Below, in pieces: positions 1-22,278 of a stretch of DNA of 32,000 nucleotides. Every line of letters starts with the position of its first letter. The first letter of the stretch is position 1. The translations under genes and the position numbers were made by a program. Source of the DNA: Pirellulaceae bacterium (lineage in GTDB: Bacteria; Planctomycetota; Planctomycetia; Pirellulales; Pirellulaceae); assembly GCA_030681235.1 (NCBI GenBank), contig JAUXWY010000270.1:24643-56642 (forward strand). The letters run 5' to 3'. The notes beneath the pieces are model-generated. The model did no database searches and had not been told where the DNA came from. It was given only the letters and a program-made list of their open reading frames with translations.

Positions 1-2834
1 CCGAACCCGGATCGGCGACGGAGACCCGTGCGGCGGACGTTGTCTGGACGGCGCAATCGTTGGCGCATCGCTTGGCACCCGAACTCGCAAAATCCAACCC
101 GGCTCCGTCGATGAAGCGCATCTTGCAGTGGGCCTTGGATCTCGCCACTGGATTGACCGAGTTGCACGAACGAGACTTGGCTTTGGGGTATTGGAATCCC
201 ACAAGCGTGATGATCACTGCCAACAAACGAGCGGTCCTCTGCTCGTTGCCTGGTGCGTTCCTACAAACTCCGTTTCTCGCGAGCACTCTCTTCGATGGAG
301 CATCGCCGGCGGGTGATGCGAACTCCCTGCATCAAGCACTGGGTGAAGGAACGACGCCGAAGTCGACGTGGCTGCCACTCGATTTCCTACCGCCGGAGAT
401 TGTCGAACGGCTGGACCAATCCGAGGCGGCTCGAAGAGAAACGGCGATAAAGGAAGCGATCGGCGTAGTACGCGGTTGGGCGACTCCCGCGGCGGATTTG
501 TATTGTTTGGGCAGCCTGTTGACATTATTGTTCTCGGAGCCATCAGCAACGGAGACCTTCGAGCAAAGGCTAGGGGCAAAACGACGCTGTGAATCAAGGG
601 CTTTGCCCCCAACCGTTCCGGGGCCAATTCGTTTGCTGGTCGAGAAACTGATGTCTCCGAACCCGCTACTGCGCCCGGGAGCAACCGATGCGGTGCAAAG
701 TCTTCGCGGCCTTTTGAAACAGAGCGTCGAGCCGTCGCAGGCTTTGTTTGTGGTTTCGCCAGAGGCCAATCAACTTCGGAAAACGTGCCGAGAGTGGCCG
801 GGCACCCGCTGGACCAAAGACGTCGAGACCATCAAGGCCAGCGAGATTCCCGAACTGATTAAGACGGTGCAAGCCCCGGCGATTCTCATCAACACGTCGG
901 GCAGTACAGCCGAAAGCACCGCCGGGATCGAGGGGCCGACAGAGTTCGCCGGGAAAGATCCTTCGAATCCGAAGCCCTCAACAGGCGGGTTCCGTCAACG
1001 ACAGCGCCCGAAAAACTTCTGGTCCCCACCGATCATCGCCTGTTTCATTTCGGGAAGTGCGGCTCTCGTGGTTTTGGTTTGGTGGATCGTGGCTGGACCC
1101 GCGGGCACGGATTTGACGGAACGAGACGCCCCGAAGAAGGCGGATGTACCGCCACAGAATCCGGCGGACGTCGTTCCGAGTCAACCGATCGCCTGGAATC
1201 AAGAAGTTGTCCCCGACGACGGACGACTGTTGTGGGAGTCGCCGACCGTCGGCCTACCGTTGGACGTAAGCCATTTGCCAAACAATCCTTCCGGACTACT
1301 GATCCTGCATCAGGATTTCTGGAGGTCGGCTGAGGTTGATTCGCTGCTGAGGGCGCTGGAGGGACCCGTTCCGTCTGGCTACGCGGCCGCGATCCAGGCT
1401 TGGCGAGAGGCCTATCAGGTCGATGCGTTCACTCGGACTTCGATCGGCCAGTATCAGGCATTGGATCGGGTACATCACGTGTTCTTGTTGGAGGGCGAAC
1501 AGCCCGTCGAGGTCTCGCTGGCGGGTTGGAAGTTGATTGCTTGTTGTGAGATGCCCGCGATTGTCGCAACCGAACAAACCGAAGAAACCGAAGCGAAACC
1601 AGAGCTCTACCACTACCTATTGGCTCGGACGGCGGGCGAATCCGTCGAGGCGGCTTGGCTGCAGTTGGCAAAACCCTTGCCAACCGATTTGGCAGAAGGG
1701 CTCGCGACGGCTCCGACGGACAGTGTGTCAGAAGATACGTTCGATCCGACCCTTTCCGATATCGTACTGGACGAGCGAAAGCTTCCTGTCCAGCGGTTGC
1801 TGGTGGGGACAACGGCACTGGTTAGCTCGGCGGTTCAAAACCATGGACAAACGCAGTTCGCGGGAACCATGGCCAGTCTCCTGACTTTTTCGGACGAACA
1901 GCGACATTTGCAGCTGTTTATCAACCCCGTCACCGTCTGGAACGCTCAAGGCCAGGACTGGCTAGGAGGACGGTGGCAATGGTTGGGACAATGGATCAAG
2001 GATCGCATTCCTACGGCGGTGAGAATGCTGTATTTGTCGATCCATGTGTTGGACGGTGGGGAGACCTATGTCGAAGTGAAGGTGGTCGGCGATCGGGCCC
2101 GACCCGTCGGCGAAGTCTTGGGACCAATGTTGGACGATTTGTCGAACATGTCCGAGCCGGTCAAACGCAGCATGTTAGGACTGCCGCGAGTTCCCTATTG
2201 GGAGAACGCCTTGTTGCGTTACGACACCATGTTGCAGGACGTCGGCGGATTGACGCGAGCCGGTCAACACGATCGAGTGCCGACGCTCAACGCGTGGCTC
2301 CGACCCCGAGCCCTCAGTAACCTGTTGGCCACCACTGAGATCTACTTCATGGCCATTGGCGGAGGCGGAGGAGGAGGAGGAGCGACAGTCGCAAACAACC
2401 CATCGACCACGCCGACGACCTCGATGCCGAAGGATTTGGCCGAATTGTTGCGGTCCCCGCTGAGCTTGAATGTCCCCGAGCAGGATTTGATCAACGCATT
2501 GGTGGAATTGGAAACGGAAATCAAAACGGCACATCCCGAGCTGCCGTTTCAGTTCTCGATCGAGTTGGACGGCAATTCACTGCGGTTGGACGGGATCACT
2601 CAGAACCAAAAGATCACCAACTTCAATCAGCAGGACCAGTCCCTGGCCGAGATCTTGACCGCCTTGGTCTTGAAGGCCAACCCCGATCCAGCGGTCACCA
2701 GCGCGCGGGACCCGAAGTGCAAATTGATTTGGCTGATTGATCCGGCCCGGCCCGCGGGACAGATTAGGATCACGACCAGGGCGGCGGCCGAAGAAAACGG
2801 CTGGACATTGCCGCCCGAGCTCATGCCCGAATGA
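1..2834 (+). CDS. Membrane-anchored protein-kinase-like protein (probable pseudokinase); 5' end outside window
   Basis: The frame is open from nt 3 to the stop at 2832-2834, with no in-frame stop upstream of the TTG at 60. The N-terminus (kinase N-lobe) therefore probably lies left of the window. nt 165-200 encode HERDLALGYWNP, which aligns with the kinase catalytic loop HRDLKPxN with the Lys replaced. The position expected for DFG reads CSLPGAF (nt 240-260). LPPEIV aligns with APE. There is one hydrophobic helix, PPIIACFISGSAALVVLVWWIVAG (~nt 1026-1097), followed by ~580 aa I cannot assign to a named family. Confidence 0.6.
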   Translation, partial: EPGSATETRAADVVWTAQSLAHRLAPELAKSNPAPSMKRILQWALDLATGLTELHERDLALGYWNPTSVMITANKRAVLCSLPGAFLQTPFLASTLFDGASPAGDANSLHQALGEGTTPKSTWLPLDFLPPEIVERLDQSEAARRETAIKEAIGVVRGWATPAADLYCLGSLLTLLFSEPSATETFEQRLGAKRRCESRALPPTVPGPIRLLVEKLMSPNPLLRPGATDAVQSLRGLLKQSVEPSQALFVVSPEANQLRKTCREWPGTRWTKDVETIKASEIPELIKTVQAPAILINTSGSTAESTAGIEGPTEFAGKDPSNPKPSTGGFRQRQRPKNFWSPPIIACFISGSAALVVLVWWIVAGPAGTDLTERDAPKKADVPPQNPADVVPSQPIAWNQEVVPDDGRLLWESPTVGLPLDVSHLPNNPSGLLILHQDFWRSAEVDSLLRALEGPVPSGYAAAIQAWREAYQVDAFTRTSIGQYQALDRVHHVFLLEGEQPVEVSLAGWKLIACCEMPAIVATEQTEETEAKPELYHYLLARTAGESVEAAWLQLAKPLPTDLAEGLATAPTDSVSEDTFDPTLSDIVLDERKLPVQRLLVGTTALVSSAVQNHGQTQFAGTMASLLTFSDEQRHLQLFINPVTVWNAQGQDWLGGRWQWLGQWIKDRIPTAVRMLYLSIHVLDGGETYVEVKVVGDRARPVGEVLGPMLDDLSNMSEPVKRSMLGLPRVPYWENALLRYDTMLQDVGGLTRAGQHDRVPTLNAWLRPRALSNLLATTEIYFMAIGGGGGGGGATVANNPSTTPTTSMPKDLAELLRSPLSLNVPEQDLINALVELETEIKTAHPELPFQFSIELDGNSLRLDGITQNQKITNFNQQDQSLAEILTALVLKANPDPAVTSARDPKCKLIWLIDPARPAGQIRITTRAAAEENGWTLPPELMPE
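2358..2381 (+). repeat. Run of eight consecutive glycine codons (GGC GGA GGC GGA GGA GGA GGA GGA)
   Basis: Read directly from the sequence. It encodes GGGGGGGG, followed by a Thr/Pro/Ser-rich stretch, and looks like a flexible linker in front of the last ~150 aa of the kinase-like protein. Confidence 0.9.
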
Positions 2835-7631: not shown

Positions 7632-7948
7632 CAAAACTCAATGAGCGAACCGTTACGGGAAGTTGGGCAATGCGCCCAGAACTTTCAACGGCTGACGGCG
7701 AAACTGAAATAGGCCGAGTAACTTCCGGACGCTTGCGAGAATCGGCGGTCTTTACGTGCTGCCAATTTGCAACTAAATTGCAAATAATCCGGCCTGGGAA
7801 TGGGGGCGGGAGTCCCTGGTGGGCCGCACCCGCTGGGGCTGATGTAGCGATCGACTCCTGCACCCGTTCCTGACTGACGATTCGAGTCTTGTTGGTGGAA
7901 GGCCAATTCAGAATTTCTCTGATTGGCGTCCCGAATTTGAGAAAATAC

Positions 7949-8923
7949 ATGAGCCATGCTGCCGTACAAAAGACGTCCGATTCACACGACGAGTACCATT
8001 TTGCCCTGGATCAGTTGCGACAGAGGCTTAACGCGACTTTGGTGGGCAAGTCCGATGTGATCGAGTTGGTCTTGGTGTGCTTGTTGGCACGCGGCCACTT
8101 GTTGTTCGACGACTTGCCGGGATTGGGAAAAACCACTTTGGCCAAGGCGATTGCAAACGGCATCGGAGCCAAGTTTTCGCGAGTTCAATGCACCCCAGAT
8201 CTCTTGCCCGCCGACATCACCGGTTTCAACGTCTTCAATCAAAAGGACCGGGAATTCGAATTTCGCCCGGGACCTTTGTTTGCCGACATTTTGTTGACGG
8301 ATGAAATCAACCGGACCACACCGCGTACCCAAAGTGCCTTGTTTGAGGCCATGGCGGAACGACAAGTCACGATCGATAGCCAATCGCTTCCATTAAGCCC
8401 CTCGTTTTTTGTCATCGCTACGCAAAATCCCGTTGAAAGTCACGGAGCGTATCCGCTGCCCGAAGCCCAATTGGATCGGTTCACCATGCGTTTGAGTATT
8501 GGGTACCCGGACCGGGCATTTGAAGTACTGATGTTGGACCGAAACATCGAGGGTCAGGCTGCCGGCACGTCAAATGCGTCCGGCGAACCCGCCATCTTGC
8601 CATTGGCAATGTTGAGCGAGCTTCAGCACCAAGTGGCCGCCATCGCCGTGCATGAAAACTTGCGAGGTTATCTGATCGACTTGTGTCGGGTGACTCGGCA
8701 ACACCGGGATGTTCCGATGGGTATTAGTCCGCGCGGAGCGATCACCTGGATGCGATGTGCTCAGGCGAGCGCGTATTTGTCGGGGCGGCGGTTCGTTATC
8801 CCCGACGACATCCAGCGGGTCGCACCGGCGGTCTTATCTCTGCGTTTGAGTCCTTTTTCGGAGAAACCCGAAGCGTTTGTGCAGAAACTGTTACAAGCGG
8901 TGCCCGTGCCCATTTCCCCTTGA
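7949..8923 (+). CDS. MoxR-family AAA+ ATPase
   Basis: Walker A DLPGLGKTTLAK, Walker B ILLTDEINR, FFVIATQNP, and the PEAQLDRF motif typical of MoxR/AAA_3. The start is set at ATG 7949 (MSHAAVQK) rather than 7889. Confidence 0.9.
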   Translation: MSHAAVQKTSDSHDEYHFALDQLRQRLNATLVGKSDVIELVLVCLLARGHLLFDDLPGLGKTTLAKAIANGIGAKFSRVQCTPDLLPADITGFNVFNQKDREFEFRPGPLFADILLTDEINRTTPRTQSALFEAMAERQVTIDSQSLPLSPSFFVIATQNPVESHGAYPLPEAQLDRFTMRLSIGYPDRAFEVLMLDRNIEGQAAGTSNASGEPAILPLAMLSELQHQVAAIAVHENLRGYLIDLCRVTRQHRDVPMGISPRGAITWMRCAQASAYLSGRRFVIPDDIQRVAPAVLSLRLSPFSEKPEAFVQKLLQAVPVPISP

Positions 8924-8969
8924 AACGCCCCGTTTCTGAATCCGTTCGTGGTGATACCCCACGACTAAT

Positions 8970-9087
8970 CGGTCTGTTGATTTAGTCGTTTAACAGTCAG
9001 CCGCAGGCGTACTCGTACGGTGGCGAGTACGCCTGCGGCTGACTGTTAAACACTAATTTCGCCAACAGATACTAAATCAACAGACCG
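8970..9087. repeat. 118-bp nested palindromic element (MITE/REP-like) flanked by TAAT direct repeats
   Basis: Outer perfect 16-bp inverted repeat CGGTCTGTTGATTTAG (8970-8985) / CTAAATCAACAGACCG (9072-9087). Inner perfect 28-bp stem (8988-9015 pairs with 9024-9051) with the 8-nt loop TACGGTGG. TAAT lies immediately outside both ends (8966-8969 and 9088-9091). The element sits in the 284-nt gap after the MoxR gene. Confidence 0.7.
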
Positions 9088-9207
9088 TAATCTTGGGGGG
9101 ATAATTCATTGCGACGGCACCAAATGCCGAACTGCCTATCGAGCCCTCGGTGAGGTTCCGTTACAATGGCTCCGGTGCGCCTCTACACCCTCGCAAGGTT
9201 CCAGCCC

Positions 9208-9750
9208 ATGTCTGCGTCTGATTTCGTGTCTTGTGTTCAAGGAAGCATCCGCTGTGGGCTCGGCATCACACTTCTCATTGGCCTGTTCAGCGTCTTTGGT
9301 TGCAGCAACGATCCCGCCGGTGATGATCACACTGGCGACGTTTACGACCACGAGGAAATTCCGGCCCACAAGCCGCTCCACTTCGCAGCTGCCATCGACG
9401 CTTTGCAAAAGAAGATGACACAGGGCACCTGGACCCAAGAAGATTTCAACGTCGTGATCGATCTAGTCAAATGGATCCCCGAATTGGCAGCCGAAAGCGA
9501 TTTGCTAGAGGCCGAATGGTTGCAAATCAACGACTTGACGAAACAATTGCTCCAACCGTTGCAAGCGTTGCAGGCCTCAACGGCCCAAGCCAAAGAGCGG
9601 ACACCGGCCAGTCTTAACTTGACGGCTGCGGACCGACAAACACTGCAAACGCTGCTGGATGAACTACAGACTTGGTGTCGCTACAAAACATTGCATGAGC
9701 CGATCTACGATGGTCGAGACGCGCACGATCACGCTGGGCACGATCACTAA
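9208..9750 (+). CDS. Putative lipoprotein with His/Asp-rich termini (possible metal-binding protein)
   Basis: ATG 9208 gives MSASDFVSCVQGSIRCGLGITLLIGLFSVFG-C, a signal peptide with a lipobox-like VFGC. The mature N-terminus SNDPAGDDHTGDVYDHEE and the C-terminus DGRDAHDHAGHDH are His/Asp-rich, and the middle looks helical. The alternative start at ATG 9166 adds 14 aa. No named family recognised. Confidence 0.5.
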   Translation: MSASDFVSCVQGSIRCGLGITLLIGLFSVFGCSNDPAGDDHTGDVYDHEEIPAHKPLHFAAAIDALQKKMTQGTWTQEDFNVVIDLVKWIPELAAESDLLEAEWLQINDLTKQLLQPLQALQASTAQAKERTPASLNLTAADRQTLQTLLDELQTWCRYKTLHEPIYDGRDAHDHAGHDH

Positions 9751-9790
9751 GCTCATCAATTACAACCATCAACCGTAGAGGGACTCATCC

Positions 9791-11416
9791 GTGGAGAATC
9801 AACTGTGGGGCATGCTGTTTCGCTTGTTGCAAGTAACGGCTCAAGCGGGGCCCACGATCTTGGTCGGCTTTTTGGTCGCCGGGGTTATGCGACGGTTGAT
9901 GGGCTACGAACTGACGAAGAAGATGTTCGGCGGCGATTCCTTACGGAGTATTCCTCAGGCTTGGTTGATTGGAATGTTGCTGCCTGTATGTAGCTTGGGC
10001 GCCATTCCGGTGATCCGCCAGATGCACAAAGCGGGTGTTCCCGGCGGTGCGATTTTGGCGTTTGCGTTATCCGCGCCGCTGTTCAATCCGATCAGCTTGA
10101 TGTACGGGTTGTCTCTATCGACGCCGGTTGTGATTGTGACCTTCGCGGCCTTGTCGCTGTTGATTGTCACGATCGTGGGCTTGCTGATTGAAAAATGTTT
10201 TCCATTTCTCGATCGTCCTACCGAGGTCGTGCCGCCCGTTAGCTATGGTGTTCGGAGGATGTTGTCGGTTGGTGACGCCGCTTGTCGCGATGCCTTTCAT
10301 GGGCTGTGGATTTATTTGGCGTTGGGGTTGATCGGTTCTGCCTCGCTGTGCTTGTTCTTGCCTTACGGATTCCTGCAAGACAAGGCCGAGCGAACCGATG
10401 TCTGGGCGCCTTTGTTTATGGCGGTCGTTTCCTTGCCCGTCTACGAAACACCGATGACCATGATCGTCAAATTGGGCGAGATGTTTCAACACGGCAATTC
10501 CGTGGGAGCGGCATTTGCGCTGATGATTTTGGGGGCGGGTGTAAACATCGGCGTGATCGTTTGGTTATGGCTGCACTACGGAAAACTACGGACGTTTGGG
10601 TGCGTGGGAGCCTTGTTCCTGATCGTGGTTGGCCTGTCCTATCTGGTCGACAAACCATTGACACCGGTGGGTGTGGCTCCGGTTGGGCACACGCATGCGT
10701 TTGATGCTTATTGCACACCGTTCGCCCCAAATACAGAGGTGTCCTTCCAAATCGTGTTACAACGATTCTTCCAAAACCTGCAATTGTACGAAGCGGCCAG
10801 TCTCGTCGGCTGGGCTGTTCTGATTCTGGGGGGCTGGCTTCTCTCAATCGATCGCCATGGGAAGATCGAACGGTGGCTGGAGAAGCCGGTGAATCGTTCA
10901 GGAACTTGGGACGTCGAATTATCCGCGAAGTTCTTGAGTGGCACAGTTTTCGCCGGACTTGTCGCTGCCAGTGTCCTCGGTTGTTATTTGTACTACCAAC
11001 CCGTCGAAGAAGTTTTCGCAGAAATGAAGACAGCTCATACGCCGTTGGCCACTGCGGGTAACACGAAAGATTGGGACGGTGTTCAGTACTGGTTACCCAT
11101 TGTCAACGATTGGTCCAGGCGTGTTCAAGTGAGCGCTTACTTGCGACGTGTCCCACAAACAGAATTCCATGAAATGCAGGCGAAGATCTTCCGCGACAAA
11201 CTGGACTTGCTGAGACACGCAGCCGAGGACCGCGAGCCGGAAGTGGCCCAGAAAGCCAGTCTTGCGATGCAGAAGTCGTACCGGCGATTCCGAGCAGCTT
11301 ACTTTCCCTTGCCTCGCGTCAAGCCATTGCCGACCATCGACGAAACGAGCGAAAAAGCGGAGGAATCCAATGAACCCGATTCAGAACCCCTCCACTCCGA
11401 CGAGACTACTTTTTAA
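9791..11416 (+). CDS. UPF0718/COG0701-type (YraQ/ArsP-like) permease with an extra C-terminal membrane-plus-soluble extension
   Basis: Polytopic membrane protein. The N-terminal ~330 aa are collinear with predicted permeases of this family (LLPVCSLGAIPVIRQ, LSAPLFNPISL, GAGVNIG). A further ~200 aa contain two additional helices and a charged tail. GTG 9791 is preceded by AGAGGGA about 8 nt upstream and lies 40 nt after the lipoprotein stop. Confidence 0.72.
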   Translation: MENQLWGMLFRLLQVTAQAGPTILVGFLVAGVMRRLMGYELTKKMFGGDSLRSIPQAWLIGMLLPVCSLGAIPVIRQMHKAGVPGGAILAFALSAPLFNPISLMYGLSLSTPVVIVTFAALSLLIVTIVGLLIEKCFPFLDRPTEVVPPVSYGVRRMLSVGDAACRDAFHGLWIYLALGLIGSASLCLFLPYGFLQDKAERTDVWAPLFMAVVSLPVYETPMTMIVKLGEMFQHGNSVGAAFALMILGAGVNIGVIVWLWLHYGKLRTFGCVGALFLIVVGLSYLVDKPLTPVGVAPVGHTHAFDAYCTPFAPNTEVSFQIVLQRFFQNLQLYEAASLVGWAVLILGGWLLSIDRHGKIERWLEKPVNRSGTWDVELSAKFLSGTVFAGLVAASVLGCYLYYQPVEEVFAEMKTAHTPLATAGNTKDWDGVQYWLPIVNDWSRRVQVSAYLRRVPQTEFHEMQAKIFRDKLDLLRHAAEDREPEVAQKASLAMQKSYRRFRAAYFPLPRVKPLPTIDETSEKAEESNEPDSEPLHSDETTF

Positions 11417-13892
11417 ATTGCTGCCGAACCTCACGGTAGAAATCGCGACAAACGGTGATGGCGGGACGTGAATCGCGAAAGTCCTTCGCGTCAGTGTCGT
11501 AGCAGCGCTGATGAAACGATTCGATAAATTGATTCAATAGACTTGGGGAACTGTTCGCGAAACAAGTTCGCAACCAAGTCGCCGGTGGTTGATGAGCGGG
11601 TCGGGGACGCCCCAGTCTCCGGGCCAATCGCTCCAGTAGCCGAAACGTTGCAACCTCCGCCTGCTGTGGCCAAATCCATAAACCGAATCGCCACCTCAAA
11701 CAAACGAACTGATCGACGATCCAATGTCGAATCCATACCAGCCCAGTCATCAACAACAAACCGACCAGTGCAACGCCCCAATTCTTGAGGCACCATGCCA
11801 CCCAAGCCAACAATCCTTGAATCAAATAATCCGCAACAGTCAATGATTCGGGTGTCGGAGCATAACCGGGTGTCGGTTCGATTGGAATCCAATTGTTCTC
11901 GCCGACGTGTACTTCAGCCCAGAAATGAGCATCCTGCTTGACCACGGCCGTCTTCCCCGTTTTGGCGTTAAAATTCTCGGGATTCACATAGAAGCCAGAA
12001 ACGAATCTCGCCGGGATTCCTTGCGATCGCAACATGAGCACAGCGGCCGTGGCGAACATATAGTCCGGGCCTTGTCGTTCGGTCAAGAACTGAGCCAACG
12101 ATGTTTCCGCGACATCTTGTACTTGAAACTCACGACGCAGACCATTGACGATCCGCTCCACTTGCTCCCACCCCGGCGATGAATCTTGCGTCCAGTCTGC
12201 GGCCAATTCCCGCGCTCGCATGACGGCTTCATCACCAAGGGGCCATTCTAATTCACTTGCCAAGGATGGCGTGGGATTGCCTTCCGAGTCAAGGTTCGTT
12301 GCAGTACGAGGGGATCGAATCTGAGGCCAAAAATTTTTTCGCGGCAAGTCGCCGAGACGAAACCCGCGTCGGATCATTCGAACCAAGGTGAATTCCGGGA
12401 TATCGCTGCCGATCGGCATTTCCAGGCCATCGTCTGGAGTCGTCTGGTAGAACCGTGATTGATTGATCTGTCCAATGGACCAGGCTTCCAAAAGCGGCGG
12501 TGTGGGAATACGAGCGCTCTGCAGGTGTACGAACGCCACTTGATAGTGATGCAGGCTCTGAAAAAGCGAACTCGGATCCATGCGGTTGTAGCAATACCAT
12601 TCGTTGCTGTCACCGGGCATCACGCCGTAGAATTTACGTCGCTCATTGGACTCCGTCTTGAACCAAGTCTCTCCGTCGTACAGGTCAAATGTTTCCAGGG
12701 CCAAATGCGTGGGTGCCGCGCCAGTCACCAACAGGAGGGCATCCGACAACACATCGTCTGGCTTGGGCTTGGGTTTGGCAGAGCCCGTTCGAGTCGTTTG
12801 AAAAGAGGAGCTGTTCTTTTCGACTTTGGCGACCCGGCCGTGATTTTGAATGAAGTTCTCCGTGTGAATTCCTATCGCTTGAGTGGTTTCGGTTCGCGGC
12901 GTCGACTTTTTGTCGCCATGCATTTCCGTGATCACGTCGTACAACGAGCGTTTCTTGGACTCGATAAACATATCGCTGTCGATCGGGCCCTCCGATTGAG
13001 CGGATTTTGTCGCAGCAACCAAGTTTTCACCGTCGCCAACTCCCGAAGTGGCGTACGGATCGCTCCATTGATCACCACCCGAGAAAAAGCTCCACGCCGA
13101 GGTCCAACCCAAAGCGTCTCTGGCCAATCCGGTTGCTAACAGCGCCAATAACAGAACGAGAATTGAAGTCAGACCGAGAATTGAAAACCGAAACGGCAGT
13201 TGGCGGCTCACGCTGCCAATGGCTTTACTTTCGACGCCTTCCCAATAAGTGGTCATCATTCGCCACAGCCCGACAACCCCGAACACACAGGCGAAAAGGT
13301 AGACGGCTGGATCCGGTTTAGCAAACGTGACCATCAACGCCGTGAAGGCGCTGCTGACCAATGCGGCTTGTCGCAGGCGTCGTGAGTGCGCGACCGCCAA
13401 TAGCATGGAGACCGCCAATACCGCGTCGAACGCCAAAAACTCCGGTGGGTCGCCGGTTTGAAATTGGCGATTGATGAACTCCACTACGGGAGCCGCCAAG
13501 ACAACCAAAGCGCCGGCAACGAAACCGATGCTTTGCACCCGGAATATTTCGCCAGGCGTGGCTTGCCCTCGAGCAACGCTCAACTTTGTGTTTCGCCATC
13601 GCCACACAATCATAAAGACTGCCCAACACAGGACGACGGCCAACGGTTTAATGAAGTAGTACTGCGGCTGTAAGTAAATCGACCACCGCGCCGCTTGCAG
13701 CACCAACAAACTTAAAAAAACCACGGTGGCTGCGCCCAACCAATACTCGGGAAGTCCCGCCCGCGACTCCGTCCCCCGGAGTCCCGTTGACGGGCTCTCC
13801 GGCCCGTTGTCCGACAAACGGTTCTCGAAGTTGGAACCTGAAGTGTCGAGTTCTCGGCCCAAAGCTTGGAGATAATACCGTGGGTGCTTCAT
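11406..13892 (-). CDS. Transglutaminase-like membrane protein (TgpA-like architecture) with a non-canonical catalytic triad
   Basis: N-terminal multi-helix membrane region and a C-terminal transglutaminase core, GPDYMFATAAVLMLRSQGIPARFVSGFYV ... DAHFWAEVHV ... WIPIEPTPG, followed by a helix and a DUF4129-like tail. The start is set at ATG 13892 (MKHPRYY), which overlaps the DUF58 stop as ATGA. The ORF-track start at 14027 would overlap DUF58 by 139 nt. Confidence 0.85.
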   Translation of the reverse strand: MKHPRYYLQALGRELDTSGSNFENRLSDNGPESPSTGLRGTESRAGLPEYWLGAATVVFLSLLVLQAARWSIYLQPQYYFIKPLAVVLCWAVFMIVWRWRNTKLSVARGQATPGEIFRVQSIGFVAGALVVLAAPVVEFINRQFQTGDPPEFLAFDAVLAVSMLLAVAHSRRLRQAALVSSAFTALMVTFAKPDPAVYLFACVFGVVGLWRMMTTYWEGVESKAIGSVSRQLPFRFSILGLTSILVLLLALLATGLARDALGWTSAWSFFSGGDQWSDPYATSGVGDGENLVAATKSAQSEGPIDSDMFIESKKRSLYDVITEMHGDKKSTPRTETTQAIGIHTENFIQNHGRVAKVEKNSSSFQTTRTGSAKPKPKPDDVLSDALLLVTGAAPTHLALETFDLYDGETWFKTESNERRKFYGVMPGDSNEWYCYNRMDPSSLFQSLHHYQVAFVHLQSARIPTPPLLEAWSIGQINQSRFYQTTPDDGLEMPIGSDIPEFTLVRMIRRGFRLGDLPRKNFWPQIRSPRTATNLDSEGNPTPSLASELEWPLGDEAVMRARELAADWTQDSSPGWEQVERIVNGLRREFQVQDVAETSLAQFLTERQGPDYMFATAAVLMLRSQGIPARFVSGFYVNPENFNAKTGKTAVVKQDAHFWAEVHVGENNWIPIEPTPGYAPTPESLTVADYLIQGLLAWVAWCLKNWGVALVGLLLMTGLVWIRHWIVDQFVCLRWRFGLWIWPQQAEVATFRLLERLARRLGRPRPAHQPPATWLRTCFANSSPSLLNQFIESFHQRCYDTDAKDFRDSRPAITVCRDFYREVRQQFKK

Positions 13893-15346
13893 GGAGTTTT
13901 CTCCAGCAACGCACCACCCATGTGCGATGTCGAGTTTGTTGCCTGAGGAATTGGCAACGGACCGGACGGCAAGCGGTTTTCTTGTTCGACGGTGGACGGT
14001 TGACTGTTCGCGGCGGAAACCTCCCAAAACTTAACATTCGGTTTCGGGGAGCAACAAGAGATCAAGTTCAGTGTCGATGCGCGATAGTCGAGATCGTGCC
14101 GAAGCAGAATGACCGCCTGTGAAGGTTCAGACAAGTGAACATTTCCTGTATCTTGGTGCCAAGTTTTCCAATCGCCGATGACAAAATCGGGACGCAAATT
14201 GATGGTCCGCTGCTGATTCCAACGTTCGAAAAAGTCCGCCCAAGACCATTCCGCAATTTGGTCCATCAACTTCTGTACTTGCCGCACATCACCTTGCGTT
14301 TCCCAAATCTGATAGCCCAATTGAATTCGAACGCTGTATCCGGCGGCCCAAAGGGACTCCGCAACCGACAATGCCACCCGGAGTCGGTGTTCGGCACGAG
14401 TGTGGGTTGTTCGGCTGGAGCGGCCCCCATCCGGCTGAAGTCCTTCTAACCAACTCCGCGAGTCGTCGGTGGATACGCTCAAGTCGGAAACATCGATCAA
14501 CAGAGATAGTTGCCGACTCACGGCCTTCTCCGATTCGCGGACCACCAGATTTCCGCTCCGCACGCTTTGTGGCCAATGAATTTTTCGGATCGGATCGCCT
14601 TCTCGGTAAGGCCGAAGCCCCAGAAAATCGCCCTCATCCCCCGCGCGACTTTCGAAACAACGTTCTCCCACGGCCCTCAAGTCTCGGATAGCCAACGAAT
14701 CCGACAACGCGGGAACCGACGGCCAGACGATGCAGGTCTGTTCGAAGTTCAGCCAGCGACTGGAAAGCCAGACGCCGAAGGGAAAGCCCGTCGCGATGGT
14801 GGCACCGGTTTGTGGAAATCGCCCGCGGCGTGTTGGGATATATTCCCAGTGAAACTCGGTGATTGAAAACCCAGGCACTCGGGCCAATGCCGCCATCGGC
14901 TCGTCCGCCACACTAGATAGTGGCTCAGCGGATTGGGAGTCCGATTGGCGATCGTCCAAGAACCGTTGACCAATCATGAGGCCCCACAACGGGAACGGCA
15001 AACGATTGGTGATTCGTAAAGTAATTCGCAAGGCCTGGCCCTCCATGCCTCGCGATTGTTGGACGAGGATGGTTCCGCGACAGGCCCACATTTGAATCCC
15101 GGGCCACCAGACGCCCAACAAAATCACCGCCGTCACAACACTTAGAACAAACCATCCCTGCGGGCCGATCGAAACTCCGACCAAAATCGACGCCAAGGCC
15201 GCCGTGAGCAACCATCCGATCGGTCGCTTCAACCAATAGACGTACTTATTGACTCCGGGACAAAAATCATGATTGCCCGCATAGAACAGACGTTTGACGT
15301 TGATCCAAAACGCTGTCAGCCGTCGCCACTTCGATGCCATGATCAA
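13889..15346 (-). CDS. DUF58-family protein (MoxR-associated)
   Basis: Two N-terminal helices, then the DUF58 signature LGLRPYREGDPIRKIHWPQSVRSGNLVVRE. Sits immediately upstream of, and is translationally coupled to, the transglutaminase-like gene. Confidence 0.85.
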   Translation of the reverse strand: MIMASKWRRLTAFWINVKRLFYAGNHDFCPGVNKYVYWLKRPIGWLLTAALASILVGVSIGPQGWFVLSVVTAVILLGVWWPGIQMWACRGTILVQQSRGMEGQALRITLRITNRLPFPLWGLMIGQRFLDDRQSDSQSAEPLSSVADEPMAALARVPGFSITEFHWEYIPTRRGRFPQTGATIATGFPFGVWLSSRWLNFEQTCIVWPSVPALSDSLAIRDLRAVGERCFESRAGDEGDFLGLRPYREGDPIRKIHWPQSVRSGNLVVRESEKAVSRQLSLLIDVSDLSVSTDDSRSWLEGLQPDGGRSSRTTHTRAEHRLRVALSVAESLWAAGYSVRIQLGYQIWETQGDVRQVQKLMDQIAEWSWADFFERWNQQRTINLRPDFVIGDWKTWHQDTGNVHLSEPSQAVILLRHDLDYRASTLNLISCCSPKPNVKFWEVSAANSQPSTVEQENRLPSGPLPIPQATNSTSHMGGALLEKTP

Positions 15347-16573: not shown

Positions 16574-19500
16574 ATGCCCGCGTTGGCGGGAGTTCCGTTG
16601 CTTTTGTCGCCCAAAACGAGCCCATCCATGAACAATTTCTACAAGCCGCGCGTCAACGTCAACAACTTTTCCTTAATGTATGCGGAATCGGTTCTGCTGA
16701 GGGACTTTATTAGTTTCTCGGACCAAGACCATGACGGTCAGTTCTACCATGTGCGGTTTCGGGACAATTCACCTGGCGGGACCGGATTCCGCCTGGGGAA
16801 TGCCGTAACGAATTTGGCGGCCAACGTTTGGCATTCGATCACCTTCAATCAATTCACCAATGAACTGAGAATGGTGGGTGGTAGTGGGGCTGCGAATGAC
16901 AACTTCAGCATTCAAGTATACGACGGCAAACAGTGGAGTGACATTTCGGCCTTTGCGGTCCACACGATTGCGTCCAATGCCAACCAGCCGAATATTGCGG
17001 GTATTACTCCTATTGATCGGCCAATCTATGAGTTGGTCATGGTTGGCAATCACTTCCAAGTCCAGGATGCCGACAATTCGACTCCGCGCAAGTACCGTTT
17101 CCGTGACTCGGCGGTGGGCGGTGGGCACTTGTTGCTCAACGGAGTCATGCAAGCTGAAAACACGGTGTTCGAAATCACGGCTGGCCAATTGGGGCAACTG
17201 GAGTACTACACCGGTAATCAAGCCTCGGCTGAAGACATTATGGTCTCGGCTTATGATGGCCGGTTCTGGAGCAATTGGGGGAAGATTGCGGTGACCAATC
17301 GCGCCAACAATGCGGCGCCCATGCTGACCTACGCCAATCCGCTGCTCCGTTTGGAGCAACGCTTGGAATTAGCCAAGTTAGTCAATTTTGCGGATCCCGA
17401 TGGCAACTCGATGAAGAAGTTGCGAGTTCGCGATATGTCGCACGCCGACCCATCGGGCTTTTTGATGATGGACGACACTCGTCTGGCAAACAGCGTTTGG
17501 CACGAAATCGACGCCCGAGATCTATTCCGCATGACTTTTGTAGGAGCCAAACAGGCGTGGCGGGACCTGCTTGAGTTTCAAGCCTATGATGGAAGTCTGT
17601 GGAGTTCGACGCTGTTCGTCAGTCAGTTGACGGTCAATAACCGTTACGCCCCAACCTTGAAAGCGATTTCGCATTCGACCAACGAGCGTGCTTTCCGCGG
17701 ATTGACAGCCTTGTACGAGTTTAGTGACCAGGACGGTGATCTGTTGCAAATGCTGCGAGTTCGCGCCTACGGGACGGGCACGCTGCACGGCCGATTCTTC
17801 CGCAGTGGCGTGGAAATGACTGGAAATGTTTGGCATACGATCAGCCGAACGGATATTGGTCTGTGGGAGTTCCAAGCTGGGAAGGTTGGAATCACGACCC
17901 AGGTTGGCATTCAAGCCTCGGATGGTTTTTCGTTTACTCCCAACCAAGTGTTGGACTTCAAGGCTGTTTCGTCGACACCGGTGGTGACCGGGATTGATCG
18001 CACGATTCTGCCCGAGTTCACGATTGCTGCCAGTAGCTTGTTTAGCTACGTCGACAAAGAGAACCATCCGATGCTGTTGGTTCGAATCCGCGACACCAAC
18101 ACCTTCGTTGGATCCGGCTCGTTGTACCGCAATGGCGTCAAGCAAGATGCGGGAGTCTGGTACGAATTTGCCGGAAACACCCTGAACACTTGGACCTTCC
18201 GTTCCAACGAACACAACCGCAAGGACCGGATTCAGATTCAGGCTTATGACGGGTACGCTTGGAGCAACGTGGGCGAGTCGTGGGTGACTGGCTTCTCGAA
18301 TAAACCCGTGGTGACGACCGATGTTTCGATCACCGTCAAACCCGGAACGGTATTCCAATTGGCCGATCTGTTTTCGTACAGCGATATCGACAACCATTCG
18401 ATGAAGAAGATCCGCGTGACGGAAGGCAATGCCGACGTCCCAAGCGGTTTCTTGGCCAACGACGGCGTGCGACAGGACCCGTTCTTATGGTACGACATCG
18501 AGGCCAGCGATCTATCGAAGTGGACGTACACGGCCCACAGTTTGATCGGCATGGATCAAGTTCGCATCGCGGCTTACGACGGTTATGTTTGGAGCGACAT
18601 TGCGAATTTGGACGTGAACACCACGACCACAGCCCCGACAGTGACGCCGATCAACCGGACGGTGTTGCCGATCACGACCATGAATCTTTCCTCGCTGTAC
18701 AGCTATTTTGATGCGGACGGTGATCCGATGAATAGCCTCCGCGTGCGTGACGAGAACGCGGACGGCAACAGTGGTTACTTCACTCGCGACGGCGTGGCTC
18801 AAGCGGCCGGCGTTCAGTACGTTATCTCTGCAACGGACATTCATCGTTGGCGATTTGTCTCGGGAGACTTCTTAGGTTCTGACAACATTTCATTTTGGGC
18901 CAATGACGGCTTTGTTTGGGGCAATTTGGCCACAGGGACCGTCACTTCGGACACCCGTACCCCAACAGCGACACCTTTTAACTACACGTTGTTGCCAAGC
19001 ACGTCGATTGGTTTGGTCAATCTGTTTGGTTACTCAGACCCAGATAACCTGCCGATTCGTTGGGTGCGGGTCCGGGATACCAACGCGAACTTGAGTTCGG
19101 GCAATTTCATTAGCTCGGGCGCTCCGCAGAGCCCCAACACTTGGCTACAGGTTTCCGCATCCGATTTTGCCAACTGGTCCTTCATGGCTGGGGCTCATTC
19201 GTTCCAGGACTCGTTGCAGATCCAGGTATCGAACGGCTACAAGTGGAGCAGCGTGGTGACCGCCGTGGTCAACAGTTTCTCGTCGACACCGACTTTGGAA
19301 GTTTGGGACCGCGCCGTCAACAACAAAGATCAAATTCGGCTGCGTTATTTGTTCAATTACATGGACATCGACAACGACCCGTTGGCACGAATCCGGATTA
19401 TTGACCGCAGCGACAACGTGAGCACAGGTGTTTTGACTCGAAATGGCATCGCCATGCAGTCCAAAGTGTGGCACGAAATTGATGCGGCTGACTTGGACAA

Positions 19501-21403
19501 TTGGACGTACAAAGGCGGTGTTTATTTATCTCAAGACTCGTACTCAGTGCAAGTCTCTGACGGACACACGTGGAGCGATATCGGCGATGCCACGATCTAT
19601 TGGAGAAACTTGTACGATCCGAAACTGAGCAAGAGTTCACGACCCGCGTGGCGTGAACCAGCGTTTTCCAATGACTTTGCCTTGAATCATCTGTTCGATT
19701 TCAATCAGGGCGACAATTTCCAGGTCATGGGCGAGCACTTGTTTTTCAACGGCGATTGGCTAAATCCGAATCGTGTGTACACCTTTACACGGGCTCAATT
19801 TGGGCAAGTGAAGGTGGCGGGACGATCTTCCGATAACGGCTCGCCGATTCTCAACATTGCCGATGTTCGCGTCCGAGCGCAAATCGACAATGTCTGGAGT
19901 CAATGGTCAAGTGTGAACGTGTTGGACGCCCCTCGAATTCACGACGCTTTGAACACGGTACTCGGCACGGACGAGGTCTGGTTGGATCTCGATGGCTTTG
20001 TGGCACATCGACTAGAGTACGCGTTCGTCAGCAGGTTGGCGTTTTACTACGGGCCTAGTTCGGTTGAACGAGTCCATGGCCACGGGTTCATGGCGCCAAA
20101 CGCGAAAACACGAGCCGCGGTTCGCGAGATCTTGAACGTTTACGAGAGCATGATCGACATGAGGTTCGTCGAGGTTTCGGAGTTTGTAGATTTCGATCTT
20201 GGCATCGGTTGGATGGACATGACGGACTACCCAACTTCGCAATATGCCTACACCGTGCGTAATGCCGCTGTGTTTCATGATCCGGACGTGCCCTTTGACC
20301 ATACGCTGGACGGCGATATGTGGTTCAACACGGCGTTTAGCGGTGCCGGCACTCTGTCGCTTACCGATCCAGATCAAGGCGAATGGGGTTACACGACCTA
20401 CATTCGCGAAATCGGTCGCTCGTTGGGATTGGCTTACACCAACGCCGGATCCGTGATTCTGAATGAGACCCCCTTCTTGAGTCCTGATTGGTTGGGGATC
20501 AGTCACAGCTACAACTCGGTTTTGTCCCGGGAAGCGGATTACCATCCGAACCCGATCACTCCTATGCTCTACGACGTTCTTGAGCTGCAGTCGCGGTACG
20601 GAGCAAATAGGTTCCATGCGACCGGTGATAATTTGTATGTCTTCGATGACACGCAACCGAGAGTGCGTTTGATTTGGGATGCAGGTGGAAACGACACGCT
20701 CAGTTTTGAGAGTGCGAACTTGGTCTCAGGCGATGGGTTTAAAGCGATCATCGACCTCCGCGAAGGTGGCAGTAGCTTTATTCTCGATCCGTCCATCCCG
20801 ACCAACAACCGCGACTTCTACCGATTTGGCAGAATGACCATCGCAATCAATACCCACATCGAACGCGCTTTAAGCTCGAATGGTGACGACGTGCTGATTG
20901 GCAGCAACCGTAACAACTCGTTGTTCGGTGGTCTGGGTAACGACGTGTTGATTGGTGGTGGCGGCGACGACTTCCTAGACGGTGGCTTGGGAGACGATCG
21001 CTACATCGTCGGTTTTGGTCACCAAGGTGTGATTGCCTTCGGCCATCGCGCTGCGACGATCTTCGAAAACGCTGGCGGTGGACATGATCGTTTGGAAGTG
21101 TACGACACGGATCCATTCTTCGAAATCATGAAGCGTCCAGTCATTTTCCAACGAGATCTCGCGTTCCATCGCGATGACCAAAATCTGTCGATCGAATTGA
21201 CTCTGGACAACAATGCGGCTGAGTCCACAGTTCTCGTGCGCCGCATGGACTTGGCGGAATCGCAGATCGAGACATTGGCATTCGGCACGACCAACGTGGA
21301 CTTGGTCCACATCTTCAACAGCTTGGCCACTGATGGAGTTTGGACCCGGTTCCAACTGAGTGGTGCCTCCAGTGCCAATGGCTTGTTGGTAGCCCCGCTG
21401 TAG
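16574..21403 (+). CDS. Giant leaderless RTX protein: ten tandem ~110-aa modules, a degenerate serralysin-like (M10B) domain, an RTX beta-roll and an HCBP-like tail
   Basis: Single 1609-codon ORF with no N-terminal signal peptide. The alternative start at ATG 16628 (MNNFYK) puts module 1 almost at the N-terminus. The C-terminal 460 aa are collinear with serralysin/AprA (see sub-features). Confidence 0.85.
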   Translation: MPALAGVPLLLSPKTSPSMNNFYKPRVNVNNFSLMYAESVLLRDFISFSDQDHDGQFYHVRFRDNSPGGTGFRLGNAVTNLAANVWHSITFNQFTNELRMVGGSGAANDNFSIQVYDGKQWSDISAFAVHTIASNANQPNIAGITPIDRPIYELVMVGNHFQVQDADNSTPRKYRFRDSAVGGGHLLLNGVMQAENTVFEITAGQLGQLEYYTGNQASAEDIMVSAYDGRFWSNWGKIAVTNRANNAAPMLTYANPLLRLEQRLELAKLVNFADPDGNSMKKLRVRDMSHADPSGFLMMDDTRLANSVWHEIDARDLFRMTFVGAKQAWRDLLEFQAYDGSLWSSTLFVSQLTVNNRYAPTLKAISHSTNERAFRGLTALYEFSDQDGDLLQMLRVRAYGTGTLHGRFFRSGVEMTGNVWHTISRTDIGLWEFQAGKVGITTQVGIQASDGFSFTPNQVLDFKAVSSTPVVTGIDRTILPEFTIAASSLFSYVDKENHPMLLVRIRDTNTFVGSGSLYRNGVKQDAGVWYEFAGNTLNTWTFRSNEHNRKDRIQIQAYDGYAWSNVGESWVTGFSNKPVVTTDVSITVKPGTVFQLADLFSYSDIDNHSMKKIRVTEGNADVPSGFLANDGVRQDPFLWYDIEASDLSKWTYTAHSLIGMDQVRIAAYDGYVWSDIANLDVNTTTTAPTVTPINRTVLPITTMNLSSLYSYFDADGDPMNSLRVRDENADGNSGYFTRDGVAQAAGVQYVISATDIHRWRFVSGDFLGSDNISFWANDGFVWGNLATGTVTSDTRTPTATPFNYTLLPSTSIGLVNLFGYSDPDNLPIRWVRVRDTNANLSSGNFISSGAPQSPNTWLQVSASDFANWSFMAGAHSFQDSLQIQVSNGYKWSSVVTAVVNSFSSTPTLEVWDRAVNNKDQIRLRYLFNYMDIDNDPLARIRIIDRSDNVSTGVLTRNGIAMQSKVWHEIDAADLDNWTYKGGVYLSQDSYSVQVSDGHTWSDIGDATIYWRNLYDPKLSKSSRPAWREPAFSNDFALNHLFDFNQGDNFQVMGEHLFFNGDWLNPNRVYTFTRAQFGQVKVAGRSSDNGSPILNIADVRVRAQIDNVWSQWSSVNVLDAPRIHDALNTVLGTDEVWLDLDGFVAHRLEYAFVSRLAFYYGPSSVERVHGHGFMAPNAKTRAAVREILNVYESMIDMRFVEVSEFVDFDLGIGWMDMTDYPTSQYAYTVRNAAVFHDPDVPFDHTLDGDMWFNTAFSGAGTLSLTDPDQGEWGYTTYIREIGRSLGLAYTNAGSVILNETPFLSPDWLGISHSYNSVLSREADYHPNPITPMLYDVLELQSRYGANRFHATGDNLYVFDDTQPRVRLIWDAGGNDTLSFESANLVSGDGFKAIIDLREGGSSFILDPSIPTNNRDFYRFGRMTIAINTHIERALSSNGDDVLIGSNRNNSLFGGLGNDVLIGGGGDDFLDGGLGDDRYIVGFGHQGVIAFGHRAATIFENAGGGHDRLEVYDTDPFFEIMKRPVIFQRDLAFHRDDQNLSIELTLDNNAAESTVLVRRMDLAESQIETLAFGTTNVDLVHIFNSLATDGVWTRFQLSGASSANGLLVAPL
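16650..19935 (+). repeat. Protein-level tandem array: ten divergent ~109-111-aa modules
   Basis: A conserved (Y/S/N)-D/N-G anchor recurs at nt 16919, 17252, 17585, 17918, 18245, 18575, 18902, 19229 and 19556, with a degenerate copy at 19883. The spacing is 333, 333, 333, 327, 330, 327, 327, 327 and 327 nt. Each module follows the pattern F.Y.D.D(G/N)..[x]..RVRD...G.F...G.......W..I.A.DL..W.F..G......I.IQAYDG..WS. Confidence 0.85.
20006..20608 (+). other. Serralysin-like metzincin domain with a degenerate active site
   Basis: Collinear with serralysin/AprA. RLEYAFVS matches LSYSFLT. MWFN matches SWYL. YIREIGRSLGLAY (nt 20405-20437 for REIGRSLGLAY) matches THEIGHxLGLSH. SVLSR (20516-20530) matches the Met-turn SVMSY. 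MLYDVLELQSRYGAN matches LLDDIAAIQxLYGAN. Confidence 0.8.
20873..21010 (+). other. RTX (GGxGxD) calcium-binding nonapeptide repeats
   Basis: SSNGDDVLIGSNRNNSLFGGLGNDVLIGGGGDDFLDGGLGDDRYIV, preceded by LIWDAGGNDTLSF as in the serralysin C-terminal domain. A segment resembling the haemolysin-type calcium-binding-protein related domain follows (DLAFHRDDQNLSIEL...QIETLAFG). Confidence 0.85.
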
Positions 21404-21423: not shown

Positions 21424-22278
21424 ATGGCCGTCCAGTTTTCGCAAACGTTAACCCGCCGCGTGTTCGGTTTTGCCGATCAGCGGCGGTTTTTTTCGTGGGT
21501 TGGCGTCGTCTTATCGGGTAGCGCTGTCTCCGTGTGTCTGCTAACTTTTTTAAGTTCTGCGGTAGTTGGCCAAGAACGCAACGGCCAAACGACCTCAAAC
21601 GCACTCTTGACACCATCAGACGACCTGCTGCGTCAAGCGTCTCGCGAACGGTGGTCTCAGGATGTGGAGCGTCTTCGGCAATTGGACGATTTGGAAACCT
21701 ATCCCGACAACGCGGTGCTGTTTATCGGCAGCAGTAGCATTCGATTGTGGGACAACATCCAGGAAGATCTGGCTCCAATCATTCCGATCCGTCGCGGATT
21801 CGGAGGTGCCAAGAGCGTGGATTTGGCCGTTTTTTCGGCGGAATTGATGCAATCCCATCGTTACTCGGCGTTGGTTGTCTTTGTGGCAAACGACATTGCC
21901 GGAGAAGCTGACAAAGTGGGTCAAGATCCGGAAAAAGTGGTCGCGTGGCTCAAGGAGGTCTGGCTGGTTTCCCGGCAACATCAGCCCAACGCTCCGTTAT
22001 TGCTGATCGAGATCACGCCCACCGCGAGTCGACGCCATGTTTGGGAGCAGCAACGGGAGCTCAATCATCGGCTGCGAAACTGGACTCTACAGGAACCCAA
22101 CGTTTATTTCCTGCCCACGGCCGAGTATTTCTTAGATGCTCAGGACGAGGTGCGCCACGAGTTGTTTGTCGAGGATCGACTGCACTTGAATCGCGAGGGG
22201 TATCGCGTGTGGGGGAGCTTGATTCGACGCCGATTGAAAGAGTTGCTGCCCGGTAATCCCGCGTCCACCGGAAAATAG
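21424..22278 (+). CDS. SGNH/GDSL-family hydrolase with an N-terminal membrane anchor or signal
   Basis: Block I VLFIGSSSIRLWD (nucleophile Ser), block III VVFVANDI, block V EDRLHLNREGY (DxxH). Hydrophobic N-terminus FFSWVGVVLSGSAVSVCLLTFLSSAVVG. ATG 21424 lies 21 nt after the RTX gene stop. The ORF-track start at 21340 would overlap that gene. Confidence 0.7.
   Translation: MAVQFSQTLTRRVFGFADQRRFFSWVGVVLSGSAVSVCLLTFLSSAVVGQERNGQTTSNALLTPSDDLLRQASRERWSQDVERLRQLDDLETYPDNAVLFIGSSSIRLWDNIQEDLAPIIPIRRGFGGAKSVDLAVFSAELMQSHRYSALVVFVANDIAGEADKVGQDPEKVVAWLKEVWLVSRQHQPNAPLLLIEITPTASRRHVWEQQRELNHRLRNWTLQEPNVYFLPTAEYFLDAQDEVRHELFVEDRLHLNREGYRVWGSLIRRRLKELLPGNPASTGK

Follow-up and report, generated by a model that had tools for sequence, protein, structure and literature searches.

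We analyzed a 32,000-nt stretch of DNA (hereafter the window) from the genome of a Pirellulaceae bacterium (Planctomycetota; assembly GCA_030681235.1, contig JAUXWY010000270.1, positions 24,643 to 56,642 of the forward strand) and found that one of its genes encodes a long, repeat-bearing protein with a domain homologous to the catalytic domain of serralysins (M10B metzincins), in which all three zinc-binding histidines are replaced and the replacements are shared by a clade of related proteins. The reading that we favor, and regard as probable, is that this domain is a pseudo-metzincin, that is, a serralysin fold without a zinc site, kept as a binding module in a protein of the type I-secreted repeats-in-toxin (RTX) type. 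Because the zinc histidines are lost yet the domain is tightly conserved, the protease fold probably serves a role other than proteolysis, for example binding.

An initial annotation, made from the letters of the window alone, had described the C-terminal third of the protein as collinear with serralysin and AprA, and this was borne out by profile, sequence and structure comparisons. The NCBIfam profile Zn_serralysin matched aa 1122-1480 over profile positions 29-370 of 462 (E-value 2.4e-26), with a score of 92.9 bits against a family cut-off of 500, so that the curated threshold was not reached. Pfam reported RTX repeats and a sub-threshold match to Peptidase_M10_C (14.7 against a cut-off of 20.7; E-value 0.027), and no match to Peptidase_M10 in the protein. 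A phmmer search against PDB sequences retrieved PrtC, AprA and serralysin at E-values of 1e-17 to 1e-13, the top match being the engineered PrtC mutant M226H (3hbu), whose SIHSY resembles ISHSY in the query. An AlphaFold2 (AF2) model of residues 1040-1609 of the 1609-codon open reading frame (ORF), computed from a 17-sequence family alignment (predicted local distance difference test, pLDDT, 71.4; predicted template modeling score, pTM, 0.66), was matched by Foldseek to PrtC, serralysin and AprA (E-value ~5e-21; target-normalized TM-score 0.61-0.72). The collinearity extends from LEYAF to the RTX repeats, and the protein has the serralysin layout of a catalytic-domain fold followed by an RTX beta-roll (Pfam RTX E-value 2e-11 for the latter).

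Conservation was assessed against a reference profile of 174 canonical homologues, in which 46 columns are conserved (a residue present in ≥70% of the sequences). The clade that shares the altered site retains 35 of these, including Y.F, GD.W, the motif Glu and Gly, LGL, TPMLYD, Q, YGAN and Y, which agrees with the earlier remark that the rest of the fold signature is well conserved; the 11 changed columns include the three His (100% in the canonical set) and the Met (98%). As judged by sequence and by the predicted structure, the domain keeps the serralysin fold. A word-indexed search with the peptidase-like domain alone gave no matches, long relatives being present in the collection yet not returned, and one with the 17-sequence family profile gave short canonical M10 proteins only and none of the repeat-bearing family.

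At the former zinc-binding motif, the codons CGC GAA ATC GGT CGC TCG TTG GGA TTG GCT TAC are translated as REIGRSLGLAY, which HMMER places opposite HEIGHALGLAH of PrtC and HEIGHTLGLSH of AprA, so that the replacement of His, His and His in HExxHxxGxxH by Arg, Arg and Tyr stands as first described. All three ligand positions are His in 100% of the 174 canonical homologues and R, R and Y in the clade, each replacement lying one transition from His (CGY and TAY against CAY). A motif search of the whole protein found no HExxH anywhere, again as first noted. E1279, the catalytic-base Glu, is retained, as is the motif Gly; the statement that only this Glu survives holds for the loss of the three His, and fails for the fifth-ligand Tyr if the second of the two Met-turn registers considered below (register B) applies. 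With the zinc ligands gone, a canonical zinc site cannot exist in the domain as translated, and we infer that peptidase activity has been lost.

The Met-turn can be placed in more than one register. The initial annotation had read it as SVMSY changed to SVLSR, with both Met and Tyr lost; this placement (register A, SVLSR on TVMSY) was returned by hhalign with low confidence, and register B, with ISHSY on SxMSY and the Tyr kept, was favored, likewise at low confidence (posterior ~0.4-0.6), by phmmer against PrtC, by the family MAFFT alignment and by a hidden Markov model (HMM) of the 174 sequences. In another MAFFT run Asn1314 came to lie on the Met position, which is a third register, and the residue spacing is compatible with both A and B. 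Register A is favored by the 60%-identity homologue P0001, which has SIMSR at that place and thus keeps the Met, and by several relatives with an intact HExxH in which Leu takes the place of the Met (P0017, SVLST; the L005 paralogue, TVLGE). On the other side, the S-H-x-Y of the register B segment is invariant in all members of the clade; the register A segment is followed by an invariant E-A-D-Y. In the window protein Met is absent from the turn in register A as in register B, and Tyr is lost in register A only. Two loci, L008:10001-12781 (P0017) and L005:7271-9958, combine an intact HExxHxxGxxH with a Met-turn that has neither Met nor Tyr (SVLST and TVLGE, respectively). To judge from these alignments, the family evidently tolerates loss or drift of the Met-turn even where the His ligands persist.

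To place the altered site in the family, we searched 1.84 billion cluster representatives exhaustively and collected 2674 relatives at E-values up to 0.001, among which there was a single close relative (P0001, 1587 aa, 60% identity, same architecture), with the motif REIGRALGLEY. A genome scan with one genome per species added three orthologues in Planctomycetota metagenome-assembled genomes (MAGs), namely L002 (Pirellulaceae, 85% identity), L003 (82%) and L004 (86%), all with REIGR[SA]LGLAY, and exact look-ups added three clusters at 90%, whose 17 members come from NCBI, JGI, Logan and ENA; every member covering the site carries the same motif. A scan of JGI metagenomes found no further members of the clade and two distant relatives only. 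R-E-I-G-R-x-L-G-L-x-Y is thus found in ~14 full or near-full sequences from five lineages, Planctomycetota wherever a name is given, down to 60% identity. These homologues answer two points raised at the outset: the R-E-x-x-R variant is conserved as a clade, and the case in which close homologues keep HExxH and this copy is a lone recent mutant is excluded.

The ratio of nonsynonymous to synonymous substitution rates (dN/dS), calculated against L002 and L004, is ~0.04 for the whole gene and 0.036-0.041 for the peptidase-like domain, which is the best-conserved region of the protein (91-92% identity, compared with 84% for the repeats, against the same two orthologues). Against P0001 the synonymous sites are saturated, and identity is 62% in the domain and 53% in the repeats. 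Invariance across the five lineages is highest at aa 1241-1280 (68%) and aa 1321-1360 (72%). The codons of the replaced ligands turn over synonymously (CGC/CGT at 1278; CGC/CGT/CGA at 1282; TAC/TAT at 1288), R/R/Y being kept throughout, so the earlier judgment that this is not a decaying gene was sound. This pattern of substitution establishes strong purifying selection on the altered site in a Pirellulaceae-centered clade, and the domain combines two marks of a pseudoprotease, homology to a peptidase family with catalytic residues missing and purifying selection. Gene order is conserved in three related MAGs (SRAP, the gene, GDSL, PGI, MBL, Ser/Thr kinase, extracytoplasmic-function (ECF) sigma factor).

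Relatives with the same repeats indicate where the clade came from. An HMM of the repeat found the same module in ~20 of the 150 best representatives, with 3-5 copies typically preceding a serralysin-like domain; in P0076, P0094 and P0134 the repeats are C-terminal to that domain, the reverse of the window protein. In one of these, P0094 (1715 aa), there are ten copies. In the 17-sequence family alignment HExxHxxGxxH is intact in 13 of 17. Two other lineages have degenerate sites: on the 11 motif positions P0008 has RLILEGMGLKI (H to R, E to L, H to E, H to I) and P0131 has EDLGTALGLKE (H to E, E to D, H to T, H to E), and both have lost the motif Glu as well, unlike the REIGR clade. Each lies directly downstream of an intact paralogue, P0131 of L005:7271-9958 (HEIGHALGFEH) and P0008 of L007:7305-9644 (HELGHAMGEKH, NTVMSY). 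Tandem pairs of active-looking and inactive-looking genes of these lineages were seen at L005:7271-12748, L006:6699-12176 and L007:7305-12436. The contigs of the two lineages carry PSCyt1/PSD1, DUF1501 and sulfatase genes, which are common in planctomycete genomes.

In a neighbor-joining tree the REIGR clade is monophyletic with 100% bootstrap support and a long stem, and P0131 and P0008 branch apart from it, among members that bear HExxH, with weak internal support. The tree and the motifs are consistent with at least three independent losses of the zinc site in the family, and descent of the REIGR domain from active repeat-bearing metzincins is the best explanation of these sequences. Loss of the zinc site may be a recurrent evolutionary route in this planctomycete family, in two cases as tandem active/inactive pairs.

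The remainder of the protein is made up of repeats and of a C-terminal portion of the kind that accompanies type I export. The ten tandem repeats share a mean pairwise identity of 25% and the pattern P...F.Y.D.DG...R.RD....SG.F...G......W..I.A.DL..W.F..G....D.I.I.A.DG..WS., and no tandem repeat was found at the DNA level within the gene because the repeats are old and diverged. An AF2 model of repeat 6, computed from a 65-sequence repeat alignment, is all-beta (pLDDT 96.6); Foldseek against PDB gave weak generic immunoglobulin (Ig)-like, cadherin, PKD and FN3 matches (best E-value 1.7e-3), and Pfam assigned Big_9 to 20, Cadherin_4 to 7 and Cadherin_3 to 7 of the 65 repeat sequences. The RTX nonapeptides lie at aa 1436-1476 (nt 20879-21001, + strand) and are followed by the C-terminal beta domain (~120 aa; AF2 pLDDT 82-93), which, with its tail, presumably carries the type I secretion signal. 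No hydrophobic leader or signal peptide was found at the N-terminus, which begins with repeat 1. The RTX repeats, the absence of a signal peptide and the conserved C-terminus together point to the layout of a type I-secreted RTX protein.

If the domain is a pseudo-metzincin, an ancestral active repeat-bearing metzincin would have lost its catalytic zinc site as Arg, Arg and Tyr replaced the three His, and would have kept its edge strand and active-site helix together with the general-base Glu and the residues that define the fold. The domain would act as a ligand-binding head that takes up an anionic or peptide-like ligand in the former cleft, and the stalk that holds this head out would be formed by the Ig-like repeats. 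The protein would be exported by a type I system, and Ca2+ would drive folding of the beta-roll. A non-catalytic role in binding or adhesion can reasonably be inferred from the architecture of the protein and by analogy with known cases.

Five observations weigh against this reading. Active relatives bear the same repeats, and the repeats alone are therefore no sign of an adhesin. By inspection of the sequence, no N-terminal retention module of the RTX-adhesin kind, which plugs the outer-membrane channel, was recognized before repeat 1. Neither the window nor the orthologous flanks were found to carry a gene for an ABC transporter, a membrane fusion protein or a TolC-like protein, nor an inhibitor gene, and linked secretion or inhibitor genes are no strict requirement for the serralysin family. 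The geometry of the former site is not fixed by the AF2 model, in which aa 1288-1324, covering the Met-turn stretch, have pLDDT <50. Finally, the retained Glu may, together with an invariant cluster (SH.Y....SREADY) of His, Tyr, Arg, Glu and Asp, point to a changed chemistry instead of simple binding.

An unlikely alternative, which does without a ligand in the cleft, is that the serralysin-like domain and beta-roll are a mere folding and secretion platform and that the Ig-like repeats are the functional part. The beta-roll and tail are conserved across the family, the fold-defining residues are kept, and the number of repeats has risen from 3-5 in relatives to 10 in the clade, all of which would suit a platform. 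A scaffold, however, needs no specific residues at the ligand positions, yet R/R/Y is invariant through synonymous turnover and down to 60% identity, and nowhere is the protein more invariant than in the segments on either side of the former site.

The conserved polar residues are the starting point of a second alternative, to which we give a slightly smaller chance: the protein would still be an enzyme, with a rebuilt active site that either binds a metal at a new place or works without one through E1279 together with Arg, Tyr and His, perhaps on a substrate other than a peptide. The general-base Glu is present in every member of the clade and lost in the two other degenerate lineages; a clade-specific invariant cluster, G-[IV]-S-H-x-Y-x-x-x-x-S-R-E-A-D-Y, lies beside the former site in a region among the most conserved of the protein; and H1168, H1311, E1279, E1320 and D1322 are conserved residues that could be alternative metal ligands. 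A binding site predicts conserved polar residues equally well, Arg is normally not a zinc ligand, the literature searched holds no precedent for a metal-free metzincin, and the geometry on which such a site would depend falls in the low-confidence part of the model. In one version, which we also think rather unlikely, Arg1278, Glu1279, Arg1282 and Tyr1288 together with SH.Y....SREADY would form a newly evolved site that is either a metal-free catalytic center or an anion-binding pocket; such a pocket could suit sulfated or carboxylated polymers, with the guanidinium groups of the Arg residues standing in for zinc.

The tandem pairs raise a third alternative, that the protein partners or regulates an active paralogue as a pseudoenzyme, by presenting or sequestering substrate, as a decoy for an inhibitor or in a heterocomplex. 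In its favor, a paralogue that keeps HExxH lies immediately upstream of P0131, and another immediately upstream of P0008; against it, no paralogue was found in the 32-kb window or in the ~10-kb flanks of the orthologous loci L002 and L003. We regard this as the least likely of the three functional alternatives. A decaying pseudogene, a recent lone mutant or accident and an assembly artefact are ruled out by the dN/dS of ~0.04, the invariant blocks and the synonymous codon turnover, the 4.8-kb ORF being intact in independent NCBI, JGI and Logan assemblies and the motif identical in all members covering the site.

The gene itself was delimited as follows. The mechanical ORF, 16574..21403 on the + strand, is unbroken over 1609 codons, as the initial annotation had stated in calling it intact over 4.8 kb, and is the sole long ORF in that region; nt 20006-20608 are translated as HRLEYAF...RYGAN. 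The product is probably 1591 rather than 1609 aa long, since the N-termini of homologues and a database record agree on ATG 16628, 18 codons downstream of ATG 16574, as the most likely true start: the translation from there (MNNFYKPRV) matches MDP1562267.1 exactly (1591 aa, 'hypothetical protein', Pirellulaceae MAG), and an exact look-up of the 1609-aa form found no record. There is no Cys in the whole protein. G+C content is even along the window (~0.54), and promoter and terminator scans gave background level.

Features of the gene and its downstream neighbor, in window coordinates.
Feature	Position (nt)	Residues (aa)	Strand	Evidence and remarks
Gene for the 1591-aa protein	16628..21403		+	Start matches homologue N-termini and NCBI record
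Ten tandem ~110-aa repeats, divergent Ig/cadherin-like beta-sandwich	16631..19939	~20-1122	+	Repeat alignment, AF2, Pfam
Serralysin-like (M10B-like) catalytic-domain homologue without zinc site	19994..20668	1141-1365	+	HMMER, Foldseek, alignments
Former zinc-binding motif, HExxHxxGxxH to R-E-I-G-R-S-L-G-L-A-Y	20405..20437	R1278, R1282, Y1288	+	Translation, alignments
Candidate Met-turn, register B, I-S-H-S-Y	20498..20512	I1309, H1311, Y1313	+	HMMER, phmmer, MAFFT; Met to His, Tyr kept
Candidate Met-turn, register A, S-V-L-S-R	20516..20530	S1315, L1317, R1319	+	hhalign; Met to Leu, Tyr to Arg
Serralysin C-terminal-type beta-roll with RTX nonapeptide repeats	20669..21013		+	HemolysinCabind, 2e-11
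C-terminal beta domain and tail ...ANGLLVAPL	21014..21400		+	Conserved in 17/17 family members, tail G.LVxPV
GDSL/SGNH hydrolase gene	21424..22278		+	20 nt past the stop; adjacency kept in L002, L003 and L004

The GDSL/SGNH hydrolase has a hydrophobic stretch at its N-terminus. Because its adjacency is conserved in the three orthologous loci, it may be co-transcribed with the gene upstream and might belong to the same feature. Elsewhere in the window, positions 7889-15346 hold genes for a MoxR-type AAA ATPase, a 194-aa ORF, an ArsP-type permease, a transglutaminase-core protein (- strand) and a DUF58 protein (- strand). This block lies between the polyphosphate kinase and SRAP genes, which adjoin in L002, and it therefore reflects either an insertion in the window or a deletion in L002. 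A 924-aa ORF at 60-2834, 68% identical in L002, has a weak kinase-like NCBIfam match (MADS6/LanL region, E-value 4e-6) and no Pfam match. A Ser/Thr kinase-TPR gene (24882-28597, - strand, 1003 aa) overlaps the upstream ECF-type sigma factor gene by 4 nt, and L002-L004 have the same pair.

Pseudoproteases as such are familiar: non-peptidase homologues are listed in peptidase databases, and eukaryotes have well-known protease-derived pseudoenzymes (non-catalytic ADAMs, iRhoms). Pseudo-metzincins conserved in bacteria are hardly described, and in the full-text literature searched we found neither a serralysin-type pseudoprotease nor an account of this planctomycete family. The clade amounts to a natural experiment in which the fold and the general-base Glu were kept and three zinc ligands were swapped and then frozen by selection, with active relatives of the same architecture at hand for comparison and with two further, apparently independent losses that each stand beside an intact paralogue. 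Public records name the proteins 'hypothetical protein' or, for one orthologue, 'M10 family metallopeptidase C-terminal domain-containing protein', and the latter carries a risk for annotation, canonical zinc binding being impossible. If the former cleft does bind a defined ligand, it would be a new kind of head domain for type I-secreted surface proteins of Planctomycetota.

Compared with canonical serralysins (M10B: serralysin, AprA and PrtC), the window protein shares the fold, a collinearity that begins at the first strand and reaches the RTX beta-roll, the RTX repeats themselves and the lack of an N-terminal signal peptide; it also has the GDxWxN, TPMLYD and YGAN blocks as well as the Glu and Gly of the motif. 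It differs in having R, R and Y for the zinc His and a changed Met-turn, in the addition of ~1100 aa of Ig-like repeats at the N-terminus and of an extra conserved C-terminal domain, in its scores below the family cut-offs, and in a gene that has no type I secretion or inhibitor genes next to it. The engineered Met226 mutants of PrtC (M226H, 3hbu; M226L, 1go8) are similar in having His (register B) or Leu (register A) at the Met position, and are unlike it as single mutants in which the zinc site is still present. Closer to the window protein are the repeat-bearing serralysin-like relatives from planctomycete-type genomes (such as P0003, P0017 and P0023; 800-1000 aa), with which it shares the repeat, the segment before the protease domain, the beta-roll, the C-terminal domain and the G.LVxPV tail; most of these keep HExxHxxGxxH and SxMSY and have 3-5 repeats, whereas in the clade the repeats number 10, the zinc ligands are gone and the stem branch is long.

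The non-catalytic ADAMs (such as ADAM22, ADAM23 and ADAM11) are metzincin folds without HExxH that are under selection and bind protein ligands. The window domain likewise appears to be a metzincin fold maintained by selection without an HExxH site, and a ligand-binding role like that of ADAMs is suggested for it by this analogy; ADAMs are eukaryotic membrane proteins of another metzincin family with another domain context, so that the kinship would lie at the superfamily level only. RTX adhesins (MpIBP, FrhA and an Aeromonas RTX adhesin) have tandem beta-sandwich extenders and a C-terminal secretion signal, and their ligand-binding domains are distinct domains located immediately ahead of the RTX repeats (PMC5550230, PMC7493085, PMC12077191). 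The window protein resembles them in its long array of ten extender-type beta-sandwiches followed by a distinct domain and C-terminal RTX repeats. It differs from the adhesins in its much shorter length, in having active relatives with the same repeats, and in a head that would be derived from a protease rather than from a sugar-, peptide- or ice-binding domain.

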